From an uncultured Chthonomonadaceae bacterium (lineage in GTDB: Bacteria; Armatimonadota; Chthonomonadetes; Chthonomonadales; Chthonomonadaceae): 64,000 nucleotides of DNA. This document shows positions 16,599-20,650 of this stretch, one piece after another. The notes beneath the pieces are model-generated. The model searched no databases. It was not told the DNA's origin and was given only the letters and a program-made list of their open reading frames with translations. The DNA lies in NCBI GenBank assembly GCA_963835065.1, contig CAWIEK010000045.1:32001-96000 (forward strand), read 5' to 3'. Position 1 is the stretch's first letter, and each line of letters starts with the position of its first letter. The position numbers and the translations under genes are program-made.

Positions 16599-17234
16599 CT
16601 AAAACGGACGAACGGCAAAGTCGCCAAGCGTGACGGTGTAACTGTTCTGCTCGTTTCGCGCCACGTAGCTGACGATGGTTTCTCCGGCTATGGCGACGGC
16701 AAGCCCGACGAGATTGCGGGCAAGCGGGTAATCGCAAACATCATCGTTGACATCGGAGGGAACGCGGTACGCGCTGTTCCAGATGATTTCGGCGTAATCG
16801 CCCGCAAGCCCGACGTGCAGGCACGGCAGATTGGCTTTTTCGCAGGCGTCTTTAACCGCCTGCCGAGAACCGCTGTTGTCGAACGTGTCTACCACCAGAC
16901 CGCTTCCCGCCAGCAGTTTGCCCGCATTGGCCGGCGTCAGTTCTTCGGCATAAGGCTCCACTTTCACGGCAAGGGCGCGGTACAGCGTATTCGCCAGAAT
17001 TTTCGCTTTGTGCGCGCCAATGTCCGAACGGTAAAACGGCTGCGTGGATAGGTTGCGCTCCTCCACTCGATCCCGGTCAATCACGCGCAAGCGCCCAAAC
17101 CCCTGCCGCGCCAAACTCTCCACAAGATTCGCCCCCAACGCCCCACCCCCGCAAACCGTAACAGGCAGATCCTTCATCCGCCGCATCACCTCTCCGCTGC
17201 GGTAAAGTTGTTCATGATAAAGCGCGTCATTCAT
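16599..17234 (-). CDS. ThiF/MoeB/E1-like adenylyltransferase
   Basis: CGGGALG nucleotide-binding loop, IDRDRVEERNLSTQ, KA, VDTFDN; no CxxC pairs; DDVCDYP is a candidate catalytic Cys. Confidence 0.9.
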   Translation of the reverse strand: MNDALYHEQLYRSGEVMRRMKDLPVTVCGGGALGANLVESLARQGFGRLRVIDRDRVEERNLSTQPFYRSDIGAHKAKILANTLYRALAVKVEPYAEELTPANAGKLLAGSGLVVDTFDNSGSRQAVKDACEKANLPCLHVGLAGDYAEIIWNSAYRVPSDVNDDVCDYPLARNLVGLAVAIAGETIVSYVARNEQNSYTVTLGDFAVRPF

Positions 17235-17281
17235 CCTTCATCCTTGTCTTTCATCACTCATCACTTATCACTCATCATTCA

Positions 17282-18208
17282 TCAATACTCTTCGTCGTCC
17301 CAATAGCCGGGTTCGCGCTTTTCAATCACGCCTACGAGCGATTGCAGGTCGAACTTTTGGTCTTCCCCGCTCAGGCAGATGCCGGAACTGATGACCGTCA
17401 AATCTTGTTTGCTGATGGCGGAATGGTGGGCTTTGCCGTCACCCGTTGTCCATGCCACCTGCCAGAACTCGCCCTTGTCCTCATAACTGCGCAGGTTGCC
17501 GCCCGCGCCCTGCAACGCGCCGCGCAAGCGTTCCTCATCCCGCCGCACACTCAGGCGGTCGTAAAGTTCCTTAACTTGGGGCGCGTTCGGGTTGTAACGT
17601 TCGCCCACCAGCGCGTTGAAGGCCGTATCACTTTGCAGCGACAGTTCATAGGTGGCGCGCATCTCCGGCGTCAGTCCCGCAAAGCGCAGCGTTTCTGATG
17701 CCTCAACGCGCATTAGCGATTCCTGCAAGGCTTCGGCAGGCGCGGGGTCAGCGCGGCGATCCAGTGTTTCAAACCACCACGTTCGCCCATCCCCGCGAAC
17801 AATCACCTGCTCGAAACTGCGCGCGGCCTCCACCAGATGTACCAGCAAAGGACGCGCGCTGCCTACCTTTTGCTTGGCATCCGACTCGTTGACGGGGTAC
17901 GCCAGCCAGCTTCGATGCTGCAGCCGATGCACCAGCCGAACGCGCAGGGGCAGCAGTTTCCTCAGATACTCCTCAATCAGCATCAAGTCTGCCGTTTCCG
18001 CCACATCCGCGTTGCGCTCATCGCGGGGGCGAAACAACCCCCATCCTTCAAAGTCGCGCGGGCGCGGCGTAAACGTCTGCACGAGTCCGGCAATGCGCGT
18101 CCGCGCGGTTCCCCCACGGACGCAAGGCGCAAGAAACGTGGTTTCTCGCGCCTTTGCTTCTTCGGAAGCCATTTGTTTTAATAGATTCTGAATGTTGAAA
18201 CGGCTCAT
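17282..18208 (-). CDS. hypothetical protein (308 aa) with C-terminal SGICLSG motif, possibly E2-like
   Basis: In operon directly upstream of ThiF; start ATG 18208; E2 likeness rests only on the motif and context. Confidence 0.7.
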   Translation of the reverse strand: MSRFNIQNLLKQMASEEAKARETTFLAPCVRGGTARTRIAGLVQTFTPRPRDFEGWGLFRPRDERNADVAETADLMLIEEYLRKLLPLRVRLVHRLQHRSWLAYPVNESDAKQKVGSARPLLVHLVEAARSFEQVIVRGDGRTWWFETLDRRADPAPAEALQESLMRVEASETLRFAGLTPEMRATYELSLQSDTAFNALVGERYNPNAPQVKELYDRLSVRRDEERLRGALQGAGGNLRSYEDKGEFWQVAWTTGDGKAHHSAISKQDLTVISSGICLSGEDQKFDLQSLVGVIEKREPGYWDDEEY

Positions 18209-18454
18209 AATCGTCTGTTCGCGCGCAAGTTTGAAAAGCAAAGCGCTGTCATGTCAGTTGGCTCCGCCGGGCTGCTGTTACGCGCTCATTAAAGGGTGGC
18301 TGCTTCTAAGCCTACCTGCCGGGTTCATCGCGTCCCTGCCACTTCGCGCCCGTCCACAAACCGACTGTCGCCACAGCCTATATGTGAACGGTACTGTTCC
18401 TCTCGTACTTGTGTATGTAGGCTTCTGCGGTTGGGGCGCGCGAACTGACGATTA
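18208..18454 (-). ncRNA. Y-RNA-like scaffold RNA 3 carrying 23S rRNA sarcin-ricin-loop and L11/GAC mimics
   Basis: 19-bp closing IR with one mismatch (18208-18226 / 18436-18454); shared scaffold motifs; AGUACGAGAGGAAC at 18396-18409; GGCUUAGAAGCAGCCACCCUUUAAUGAGCGCGUAACAGC within 18267-18323. Confidence 0.8.
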
Positions 18455-18524
18455 CGAGTTCCGTTACATCCTCTATCGCGCGCCTACCCCGTTTGCTAAA
18501 CGCATTGCTTCCAAAGCTCAATAC

Positions 18525-19979
18525 TCAATGCTTTTCCCTGACAGGAAGTTCCGTTTCCAGTATTTCCAGCAGCAGTTCCAGGCGCGACGGGGCGTTGAGC
18601 ATCGGGATCAGGTTCGGCAGGCTGTAGTAGTCGCCGGCGAACGTGAACGTGTTGACGGGAGCATGCATCTCTTTGAGCTTTTGCTCCGTCCAGCCGCTGC
18701 TGTTTCCCACGCGCACGATCAGCACTTCCGGTTCCACGCCCATGTCATTGCGGTAGTTTTCATACGCGGTCTCGAAATACGGCGCGGTGTTGTCGCCTTC
18801 GTCCGTGACGAGTATGATCTGCTCCACGCGCTGCCCCTTGCGCCGCATAGATTCGAGGGCGCAGCCAATGGACGTGCTGCCGCCCGCCTTGAGCAGCCGA
18901 AACGCCTTTTCCCAGTCGCTCATATCCGTGCCTTTGGCCTGAACCGGGTACGGAACCGTGTCGAACGCATACACGAGCAGGCTTTCATCCGCGATGCCCG
19001 AAATCATGGCCGCGATGTTCTTGCCGACTTCGATGGCGTTTTCCATCGAAGACGACTTATCCACGAACAGCGCGGTTGGGCGCGTGATTCGGCCTCGCTT
19101 TTTGGCCTGTTCATCGGAAATACGTTCCAGCCTGGCCGTCGTTTCCGCGTCCAGATCGGAAGCGTCGTTGGCAACCCGCGCCTTGAATACCGATACCCGC
19201 GCGTCCGTTTTCGCCTCTTCCAGCTTGCCGTCAATCAGCGCCTTCACTTCGGGATGATCGAACGCGCCGCGCGCTTTCAGCGACTTGAGGTTGTTGATCG
19301 TTTCCGCCGGCGTCATGGAGTTAATCAGCGCGACAAGCACCGTTGGCGTCAACTGCTTGATCGCGCCGACCGCAACCGTGTACGGCAGGTTATGCTCCAC
19401 GATAATCTGCGCCTGCGCCGCGCCGCTTTCGGCCTGCGCCAGCAGCTTCACGGCGTACACAACGCTGTCTTCCGGCGGCGCGTCCTTGAACAGCATTTGA
19501 TCGGCGCGGGCATCCGGCTTGATGTGCAGGGTTGCGTACAGGTGCTTCATCGCCTTGTGGTTGCGCAGCGCGGCGCGGTCAAAGAAGGCCGGGTTCTGCT
19601 CGCGCTGTCGCAGGTATTTGGTAACAGCGGTGCGGGCAATGCGCGGAACCTTGCCCAAATGCTGCTTCATAAAATCTATCACCCGCATCACCTGATAGGG
19701 CGGCAGTTCTTGCAGCAGAACGTACCCGGCTTCGCGGTGTTCCGGCTCTTCACTGATGAGCAGGCGCGCGATAAACACTTCCTTGTGGTCGCGCACGTCG
19801 CCGTTGCGCTGATACCACACGGCAAGATGGGCGTAAAACAGCGGGTCGCGGCCTGCCATGTCCTTGTGTACTTCCGCCACCTTGACCAGTTCGCGGTGCG
19901 GCGTGGTCAGCAGGCTGTTCAGCAACTCCAGGCGCAAGTCACGCTCCACAATCGGGTTTGGCGTCGTTTGGGCGCACAT
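18525..19979 (-). CDS. TROVE/Ro60-like helical protein with C-terminal vWA domain
   Basis: N-terminal [14 protein letters not shown]...VRD resembles TROVE; vWA MIDAS DKSSS, GGSTS, LVTDE; 484 aa; AAGGAG SD; flanked by tRNA-like RNAs as rsr genes are. Confidence 0.75.
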
Positions 19980-19999
19980 GGATGTTCTCCTTTCAGTCG

Positions 20000-20101
20000 C
20001 AGGTTTCAGGTTTCAGGTTTCAGGGATCAGGGCAATGCCGCTGCTTGGAAGATAGCACAAAGCAGTACGCATGTCCTGACCCCTGACCCCTGAAACCTGA
20101 C
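20000..20101. repeat. inverted pair of heptamer tandem repeats (GTTTCAG)n ... (CCTGACC/CCTGAAA)n
   Basis: Direct reading; can form a hairpin just upstream of the TROVE RBS. Confidence 0.7.
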
Positions 20102-20107
20102 AAAGTC

Positions 20108-20234
20108 CTGCCTCGCATAAGTTCGGAAAGCTGTGGGTATACATAGGATTTGAACCTATAACAGTCTGGGTATCAACCAGATTGTCCTACCAATGGACAT
20201 GTATGTAAGCTTCCACAGTCAGGATGCGAGGCAG
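20108..20234 (-). ncRNA. Y-RNA-like scaffold RNA 2 with tRNA-Ile(GAU)-like cloverleaf
   Basis: 11-bp closing IR; D arm GUCC-AUUGGUA-GGAC; anticodon arm UCUGG-UUGAUAC-CCAGA; T arm AUAGG-UUCAAAU-CCUAU; 4-bp acceptor remnant, no terminal CCA. Confidence 0.8.
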
Positions 20235-20261
20235 AAGTGTCGTATGTGATTATAAAAGGGT

Positions 20262-20415
20262 TTTGTTCCGCGCAAGTTCCAAAAGCGGGTTTTCACTGGC
20301 GCTCTGCCACTGAGCTACAGCCGCCCAATGTATGCGGCTGACAGGATTCGAACCTGTGACTTCCCCATTAAGAGTGGAATGTGTGTACGCTTCTCGCGTC
20401 AGGGCGCGGAACAAA
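20262..20415 (-). ncRNA. YrlA-like scaffold RNA 1 with circularly permuted tRNA-Lys(CUU)-like domain
   Basis: 12-bp closing IR; order is anticodon arm UUCCA-CUCUUAA-UGGGG, AAGUC, T arm ACAGG-UUCGAAU-CCUGU, loop-closed acceptor stem CAGCCGC/GCGGCUG, UA, D arm GCUC-AGUGGCA-GAGC. Confidence 0.85.
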
Positions 20416-20449
20416 CTGTCAAATTTGAACTATTCTCAACCCTCAACTC

Positions 20450-20650
20450 TCAACCGTAAACGGCTTCCGGGCGCACGATGATGTTGCCGTTGGGCGCGCG
20501 GTCTACCACATAGGACACGAACCGGGCGCGCTCCACGTCGAAATGCTGCGCCAACCGTTCCCGAATTTCGTTGTCCTTCATCTCGGCTGAAACTTTTACT
20601 TGAAGTTCGTTCAAGTCGTAAGAGCGTCCTTCAAAACGAACGTGTACCAT
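20450..20650 (-). CDS. small ubiquitin-like (beta-grasp) protein candidate, 66 aa
   Basis: [13 protein letters not shown]...[12 protein letters not shown]-terminal Gly; first gene of a ThiF-containing operon; GAGG SD. Confidence 0.7.

Follow-up and report, generated by a model that had tools for sequence, protein, structure and literature searches.

Within the window analyzed here, a stretch of 64 kb from contig CAWIEK010000045.1 of an uncultured Chthonomonadaceae bacterium, an operon on the minus strand brings together a small predicted ubiquitin-like protein (Ubl), an E1-like ThiF enzyme, a Ro60-like protein, a protein with an invariant Cys, and three Y-like RNAs. Coordinates are positions within the window, and all parts of the operon lie on the minus strand, where the order of the open reading frames (ORFs) is 66-aa, 484-aa with a von Willebrand factor A (vWA) domain, 308-aa, ThiF, and DEDD exonuclease. 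The nearest named homologs carry the label Chthonomonadaceae. The original prediction had read this locus as a possible minimal Ubl-E1-E2 cascade; the Ubl, the E1-like ThiF and the conserved Cys of that reading stand, but its RNA side had been overlooked, namely the three Y-like RNA genes, the Ro60/TROVE identity of the vWA protein, and the DEDD exonuclease gene directly downstream. The parts, with the basis for each assignment, are as follows.

20450..20650, minus strand: 66-aa predicted minimal beta-grasp (ubiquitin-like) protein, C-terminus RPEAVYG (AlphaFold2 model, VIA fold search, homologs)
20265..20412, minus strand: Y-like RNA 1, terminal stem around a circularly permuted tRNA-like (YrlA-type) module (Rfam YrlA, stem)
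20110..20232, minus strand: Y-like RNA 2, terminal stem around a tRNA-like cloverleaf (Rfam tRNA, stem)
18525..19979, minus strand: 484-aa putative divergent Ro60/TROVE protein, helical repeats and vWA domain with DxSxS motif (HHalign)
18217..18445, minus strand: Y-like RNA 3, terminal stem around a sarcin-ricin-loop copy (18396-18409) and a 23S helix 43-44 copy (18267-18322) (Rfam large-subunit rRNA, covariation)
17282..18208, minus strand: 308-aa protein, candidate E2-like carrier, invariant Cys278 (model, fold searches, alignments)
16599..17234, minus strand: 211-aa ThiF/E1-like adenylyltransferase without Zn sites, invariant Cys167 (Pfam ThiF, E 8e-27)
16035..16586, minus strand: DEDDh 3'-5' exonuclease (RNase T/KapD-like), accessory (Pfam RNase_T, E 5e-20)

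The genes for the Ubl, the vWA protein, the 308-aa protein and ThiF are real and conserved, and they travel together beyond chance. When GTDB genomes were scanned with the 308-aa family, 527 stretches were confirmed. Linkage was counted in the best 80 of these, which were selected on the 308-aa protein alone and are related to each other rather than independent samples. These loci come mostly from filamentous cyanobacteria, with others from Chthonomonadaceae, Acidobacteriota, and unclassified bins. Within 8 kb of the 308-aa gene are found ThiF (71/80), the vWA gene (48/80), the small gene (35/80) and the exonuclease gene (6/80), and the order and strand of the linked genes are constant across the 80 loci. 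Where at least 7.8 kb of upstream sequence is available (n = 54), all four genes occur in 32 loci, ThiF alone accompanies the 308-aa gene in 13, and none of the three does so in 4. ThiF is present in 69 of the 75 loci with enough downstream room. All five checked genomes that have no small and vWA genes near the 308-aa gene encode both elsewhere, and there 3-5 kb separate the small gene from the vWA gene downstream of it. Two phage contigs hold all four genes, a 595-kb phage record holds the vWA gene, and two cyanobacterial plasmids carry the vWA gene together with RNA 3. In the phylum of the window, the vWA profile matches 11 of 151 genomes, 8 of them strongly, and the system is therefore patchy there.

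Among the same 80 loci, 24 carry a gene of a 241-aa family inside the operon or close to it (e.g., L065:5522-6247); the family has no Pfam match and is missing from the window. A phage copy of the operon (L081:3290-14584) is surrounded by numerous T-loop-like elements, along with two HNH nucleases and an ORF resembling a peptide release factor.

The ORF finder starts the small gene at TTG 20815. Because its homologs are 66 aa long and a purine-rich ribosome-binding site lies ahead of ATG 20650, the latter start is preferred. As originally predicted, the resulting protein (20450-20650, minus strand, ending RPEAVYG) exposes a single C-terminal Gly. The ending AVYG is found in 119/119 homologs among the matches listed (462 hits in total), and the terminal Gly in 36/36 operon copies. 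AlphaFold2, given 127 aligned rows, returns a model with a predicted local distance difference test (pLDDT) score of 93 and the order strand-strand-helix-strand-strand, i.e. hairpin, helix, hairpin. All 50 matches listed by the VIA fold search are beta-grasp proteins, as judged by their titles, at Z 3.7-5.1, values that are low but usual for 66 residues. Among the matches listed are PB1, MoaD, MOCS2A, FERM F1, TtuB, ubiquitin and ISG15, with MoaD aligned end to end, to its last residue. Foldseek matches were non-significant and mostly to ubiquitin or Ubl chains, at TM ~0.5. On the strength of this model and the invariant terminal Gly, the identification as a Ubl is upheld, and the small protein is accepted as a minimal beta-grasp.

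Twelve flanking ORFs (~9.5 to 28.5 kb) were scanned against Pfam; they encode transporters, M16 peptidases, a TIM barrel, a prepilin-type protein and helix-turn-helix (HTH) proteins, and three have no Pfam match. No thiamine, molybdopterin or JAB gene is among them, and the two Prok-JAB genes of the genome both lie on contigs other than that of the operon, in agreement with the earlier claim that sulfur-metabolism and JAB genes are absent nearby. Since the Gly of the Ubl is already exposed, a JAB protease would be unneeded for maturation of the tag. Hallmarks of a sulfur carrier are likewise missing, as the protein ends in Tyr-Gly, not Gly-Gly, and no ThiG, MoaE or sulfurtransferase gene occurs among the 12 flanking ORFs.

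ThiF displays the features of an adenylation domain (GxGxxG, NLxxQ, Lys, and DxxDN), with the adenylation motifs invariant in 57 aligned rows. The Zn-binding CxxC pairs of MoeB/ThiF sensu stricto occur in 0/57 of these rows. The original description of a ThiF with DVCDYP and no CxxC pairs fits the window copy on both points and extends, for the missing CxxC, to 57/57 aligned homologs. Cys167, invariant in the 57 rows, presumably sits at the position of the E1 crossover-loop Cys, going by the layout of MoeB and UBA1; PDB alignments of ThiF mostly end before this residue. The best NCBIfam matches are ThiF, MoeB and UbaA, all below cut-off. With Cys167 conserved and the Zn sites missing, the E1-like designation is retained, and activation of the Ubl by this ThiF is likely.

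By profile comparison, the 484-aa protein is a divergent homolog of Ro60/TROVE. The best PDB sequence match of its profile is 9KOP/9L5Y, identified as a Thermus phage Ro60 in the cited passages of PMC12135203, with a collinear alignment at E 1.2. The same vWA profile retrieved two proteins with both TROVE and vWA_Ro60 calls in Pfam, and HHalign against these two gave a probability (P) of 98.3% and E 2.6e-14 over 338 columns that cross both the helical and the vWA regions. Two out of six distant homologs score at or above the vWA_Ro60 cut-off, and the DxSxS motif of the vWA domain reads DKSSS. Pfam TROVE (PF05731) has no match in the window's own genome. The vWA domain had been put forward as a Ubl or substrate receptor; the domain is indeed present, but it belongs to a divergent Ro60/TROVE protein and not to a generic receptor. 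In one cyanobacterium, the Ro60-like gene (G155:C359:26366-29134) carries an in-frame insertion of ~440 codons, possibly an intein.

Each of the three RNAs is enclosed by a 5'-3' terminal stem that shares one pair of motifs. A shared stem of at least 9 bp has three occurrences in 16 Mb (both strands of the genome), all in the operon. RNA 1 matches Rfam YrlA at 20298-20364 (E 4e-4, 32 bits vs a gathering score of 69), RNA 2 matches Rfam tRNA at 20138-20204 (37 bits) and draws no ARAGORN call, and RNA 3 matches large-subunit rRNA at 18267-18322 (E 8e-10). Features of Y RNA (YrlA) are thus present as a terminal stem, a location on the same strand near Ro60, and a tRNA-like module. Related loci, too, have similar stems in the interval from the small gene to the Ro60 gene, and ARAGORN often calls these as odd tRNAs. 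Upstream of the small gene, a long near-perfect hairpin (20745-20845, minus strand, -50 kcal/mol) may represent a fourth RNA or a terminator-like element.

RNA 3 contains 12 nt that are identical to part of the host 23S rRNA and, 97 nt later, a 56-nt copy (45/56 identical to host 23S). We take the 12-nt stretch to be the sarcin-ricin loop and the 56-nt stretch to be helices 43-44. In the host 23S the order is reversed, with the sarcin-ricin stretch 1730 nt after helix 43-44, and RNA 3 is therefore no rRNA gene or pseudogene fragment. Covariation was assessed in 75 of 93 distinct copies, with 18 dropped by eye, chiefly near-duplicates and gapped rows. The rRNA-derived structure is 98.4% paired, with two-sided changes in 7/14 pairs and none of 500 shuffles as high, although relatedness of the copies can inflate such covariation counts; slid controls drop to 28-65% paired. 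The terminal stem, too, has two-sided changes (29 rows). An alternative from RNAalifold, which pairs a UACAUAC motif with the helix 44 strand, was set aside: the rRNA-like pairing is preferred because the window copy breaks this alternative and pair 47-57 covaries, and a switch between the two is conceivable.

By a strict test, RNA 3 is present in 30/80 related loci. The pattern of the sarcin-ricin half alone finds 91 metagenome loci, with the helix 43-44 half downstream in 75. An iterated nucleotide hidden Markov model drifted onto tRNA-like copies, so only its strong matches were used. The RNA pattern has no match in the viral contigs searched. In four metatranscriptome runs compared with a Nostoc copy, contigs of 150-196 nt span RNA 3, and in the same comparison genuine rRNA contigs pile onto the helix 43-44 part; we read this as a weak hint of expression. 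Such a reversed-order rRNA mimic was not found in Rfam or in the literature searched, and we rate RNA 3 as a new class of RNA, widespread in filamentous cyanobacteria, a result that stands even without the E2 idea considered below.

Further observations concern this RNA and its surroundings. A GC-rich segment just upstream of it (18435-18484, minus strand) can pair with its 5' stem strand, which could affect processing. Elsewhere, the rRNA-mimic RNA often lies inside long tRNA arrays (L101-L191), and NADAR-like ORFs (21/91) and an AAA ATPase family (10/91) are found in its loci. In six or seven near-identical loci (e.g., L163), a shorter stem-closed RNA has the sarcin-ricin copy only.

The 308-aa protein has 1606 homologs and belongs to no Pfam family. 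Every row of two alignments, one of 119 and one of 131 rows, has Cys278. Among the best 150 of 592 cluster representatives, 146 have the exact G-x-C-x, two have the Cys but in a changed context, and two are without the motif; the Cys column is 99% conserved. The best-conserved stretch, G-x-C-L-x-G-x-D-x-x-F-D-L, is held down to ~30% identity. Two particulars of the original prediction need correction, in that the translation does not stop at FDL, as claimed, but runs 20 residues further, and the context given as G-x-I-C-L is actually S-G-I-C-L, with the Gly immediately preceding the Ile. The structural model, with mean pLDDT 73, consists of an N-terminal helix, two strand-rich, beta-barrel-like domains of which the second is an OB fold, helices, and a C-terminal helix with four strands in a beta-meander. 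For residues 85-155 the matches, at Z 6-7, include OB folds such as those of uS17, IF1 and eIF1A. In Foldseek, the N-terminal half aligns with S1-type domains and with the Mpa/ARC interdomain. The order helix, four strands, Cys, helix, with the Cys following the sheet, in our view resembles a trimmed E2 core. The spacing from the Cys to the hydrophobics of the helix equals, by eye, that of some bacterial UQ_con proteins.

Searches for named relatives gave little. Pfam scans of 119 and 131 family members found no E2 family among the 25 listed, PDB sequence searches with three alignments (A1, A4 and A11) returned nothing significant, and Atlas searches found no named family. Because profile and fold searches gave no E2 match, the E2 claim is drawn from anatomy only, that is, from the helix, four strands, invariant Cys and helix, next to an adjoining E1. 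A complex prediction with two ThiF copies, the Ubl, and residues 218-302 scored 0.10 (mark 0.32) and weighs neither way. The chance that the protein is an E2-like carrier is near even, and its family is a candidate new E2-like family. In the genome of the window, a separate JAB gene adjoins a weak match to UQ_con, an E2 family (G000:C59:37512-38778), and UQ_con matches are present in 33/251 genomes of the phylum.

The trn-operon repeat, the sequence of which is published in the cited part of PMC8421152, lies, with one mismatch, at most 500 nt ahead of the small gene in 13/36 loci. A tighter TrcR-like pattern occurs within 1.2 kb upstream in 21/35 loci vs 3 matches in 785 kb of background; this pattern was composed after the first matches had been viewed, and it also fits the TrcR site quoted in a passage of PMC10272220. 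Directly upstream of RNA 3, TrcR-type repeats are rare (9/125 vs a shuffle rate of 1.2%). Recurrent neighbors include Tpt1/KptA (11/80), an L7/L12 paralogue (10/80), endonuclease V, NADAR, and tRNA arrays. The TrcR-like repeats, taken with the Tpt1, L7/L12 and tRNA-array neighbors, therefore point to a response to translation stress. Equating the operon with Anabaena asr0855-alr0857 was dropped, as 252 and 390 nt do not fit and upstream no divergent small ORF was found to recur.

The Ro60 identity and the Y-like RNAs that mimic tRNA and rRNA, in turn, point to RNA and translation quality control. We propose the following scheme. ThiF very probably adenylates the terminal Gly of the Ubl. The odds lean slightly toward formation of a thioester at Cys167 and transfer of the tag to Cys278 of the 308-aa OB-fold protein. 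The Y-like RNAs can be expected with good confidence to bind the Ro60-like ring through their shared terminal stem. Passages of PMC4201824 describe a Deinococcus Y RNA that tethers Ro60 to an effector, and a decoy role is proposed for YrlA in the cited part of PMC7790460. The tRNA- and 23S-mimicking RNAs would then have an even chance of baiting proteins that act, by binding or by cutting, on tRNA or on the factor-binding site of the ribosome; translational GTPases, stalk proteins and ribonuclease toxins are candidates. Taken whole, the reading in which a Ubl-tagging module works with a Ro60-Y RNA particle that carries decoys of the ribosome, and the Ubl would be attached to proteins captured by the ring during translation stress, comes a little short of an even chance, target and transfer being inferred. 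The boldest version remains rather doubtful; in it, a Y RNA that is a miniature factor-binding center on the Ro60 ring lures GTPases or toxins, and a JAB-less cascade with an RNA-binding E2 tags them or the RNA.

Several findings weigh against the proposed scheme. For the 308-aa protein, residues 275-308, which include Cys278, are modeled at pLDDT <50; the best match of residues 214-283 is the N-terminal domain of Sec3, at a Z of 7.8 that is in the common-fold range; and no UBC/E2 structure is among the Foldseek or VIA matches listed. HHalign against the UQ_con, Prok-E2_B and Prok-E2_E profiles gave P of 0.5, 0.2 and 2.1%, with controls up to 1.2%, where the E2 profiles were small (2, 6 and 20 rows, with L218 in the last set taken in a wrong frame); the Prok-E2_E alignment spans the first helix and two strands. 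The HPN motif found upstream of the Cys in bacterial UQ_con proteins of the same phylum is not present in the 308-aa protein, and the cited passages of PMC1779556 note that the His is missing also from some prokaryotic E2 families. Of the E2 originally predicted, therefore, the conserved Cys holds, but the fold finds no backing in fold matches or profile comparisons. In ThiF, Cys28 (57/57) and Cys138 (56/57) are kept as well as Cys167, which for this reason is not singled out by invariance alone. On the RNA side, the canonical 5' Ro60-binding motif GNCGAA (GNCGAAN0-1G) is not seen, another conserved stem motif standing in its place. RNA 3 is not tied to the operon: it occurs in no more than 30 of the 80 loci, an operon gene is found in the fetched DNA (often short) of 24/91 metagenome loci, and 35 of the other 67 hold at least three tRNA genes. 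The window itself has no TrcR-like repeat.

Of the other explanations, a sulfur relay fares best, unlikely as it is. In it, the Ubl would be adenylated by ThiF and thiocarboxylated via a host sulfurtransferase, and the 308-aa protein, with OB folds as RNA binders and Cys278 as the sulfur relay, would thiolate Ro60-held tRNA or rRNA, like TtuB or Urm1. MoaD, MOCS2A and TtuB are indeed among the best fold matches, the sub-cut-off NCBIfam matches are to ThiF, MoeB and UbaA, the context is rich in RNA, and the 308-aa protein has no E2 match. However, no desulfurase, rhodanese or PP-loop thiouridylase gene occurs among the 12 flanking ORFs, nor was any of these enzymes recognized in the recurrent neighbor clusters, with 8 neighbor proteins annotated; the Ubl ends in a single Gly, not Gly-Gly; and the phage copies keep the same four genes. 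It is improbable that Cys278, with His261 and an Asp, instead forms a cysteine hydrolase or adaptor that takes the place of JAB in removing or recycling the Ubl, while ThiF alone ligates it, like archaeal UbaA. The operon without a JAB gene, the 71% conservation of His261 and 98% conservation of two Asp residues beside the Cys, and once more the missing E2 match would suit such an enzyme, whereas His261 is variable in distant members and no protease fold is among the matches listed. More improbable still is a tag placed on RNA, with OB domains gripping an RNA end that passes through the Ro60 ring, while Cys278 transfers the Ubl to a hydroxyl or amine of the damaged RNA as a mark or cap. In its favor, the carrier Cys shares a chain with OB folds that most resemble uS17, IF1 and eIF1A, the neighbors Tpt1 and DEDD exonuclease act on RNA ends, and the Ro60 cavity binds RNA ends according to passages of PMC4201824, but the tandem barrel region is also like the Mpa/ARC interdomain, a handler of protein substrates. 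That two independent modules (Ubl-Y RNA-Ro60 and 308-aa protein-ThiF) were merely gathered in one stress regulon is very improbable, for although the halves are split in some genomes and the genes inserted between them vary, the same order is found in 32/54 loci from several phyla and phage, all five split genomes retain every part, and the Ubl sits in one half with its only plausible activator in the other.

The known roles of ubiquitin-like conjugation in bacteria lie mainly in phage defence or cofactor synthesis, and the bacterial Y RNAs known so far mimic tRNA. Elongation factors and several ribotoxins act at the sarcin-ricin loop and helices 43-44 of rRNA. The locus unites predicted Ubl conjugation with Y RNAs and adds a structured RNA that copies two rRNA elements, which would give Y RNAs a testable role as substrate-recruiting baits. 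If the boldest version of the scheme is true, bacteria, and phages as well, would possess an RNA-guided ubiquitin-like ligase that serves ribosome quality control. The filamentous cyanobacteria that carry RNA 3 are genetically accessible hosts. The parts belong to known superfamilies, and what we rate as new is their combination and the rRNA-mimic RNA. The literature searched (titles, starts of abstracts, and cited passages) has no account of the operon or of an rRNA-mimicking Y RNA, and an earlier mention is possible, e.g. in Burroughs and Aravind 2016.

Two features lie elsewhere in the window. An M16 peptidase-like gene (12639-14172, minus strand) is split over two overlapping frames, which suggests a frameshift or an assembly error, and two paralogous double-HTH proteins (23500-24801 and 27178-28470, minus strand) flank secreted proteins with PEP-CTERM-like ends.

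Several known systems share parts of this operon. Like ThiS-ThiF, MoaD-MoeB, TtuB-TtuC and SAMP-UbaA, it pairs a beta-grasp protein with an adenylase of the ThiF family, with MoaD and TtuB among the top folds. Unlike these sulfur carriers, it has a single Gly, no CxxC, scores far below all NCBIfam cut-offs, and no pathway genes nearby. Among the bacterial Ubl-E1-E2(-JAB) conjugation operons are types 6a-6e in the cited passages of PMC1779556. PRTRC, Bil, Bub and CBASS Cap2 belong to the same group of systems. With such operons the locus shares a beta-grasp with terminal Gly, an E1-like enzyme, and a third protein with an invariant Cys. It differs from them in having no JAB or detectable E2 family match, a Zn-site-free E1 of only 211 aa, a Cys domain joined to OB folds, and linkage to Ro60 and RNAs. 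PADLOC returned no match save a generic E1 domain and the exonuclease, and the terms vWA and TROVE do not occur in PMC1779556.

With the cyanobacterial TrcR regulon and long tRNA arrays, as presented in passages of PMC10272220 and PMC8421152, the system shares the same type of direct repeat, upstream of 21/35 loci. Several loci adjoin such arrays, and the rRNA-mimic RNA also lies inside them. Unlike the regulon, the window's copy is without the repeat, and asr0855 and alr0857 are of other lengths. These genes or RNAs are undescribed in the covered passages of the two papers.

The closest relatives on the RNA side are the operons of Rsr (Ro60) and Y RNA, such as Deinococcus Rsr/Yrn, Salmonella rsr-yrlBA-rtcBA, and the Thermus phage phiLo Ro60 (9KOP/9L5Y). 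Like these, in the cited parts of PMC4201824 and PMC12135203, it has a TROVE-vWA protein and, on the strand of that gene and no more than 2 kb away, several stem-closed noncoding RNAs, one or more of which include a tRNA-like module; RNA-repair neighbors are a further shared feature. Unlike them, its protein falls below the Pfam TROVE cut-off and its RNAs have other 5' and 3' stem motifs in place of GNCGAA. One of these RNAs mimics 23S rRNA, and the partners are not RtcB/RtcA but a Ubl, a ThiF, and a Cys protein.

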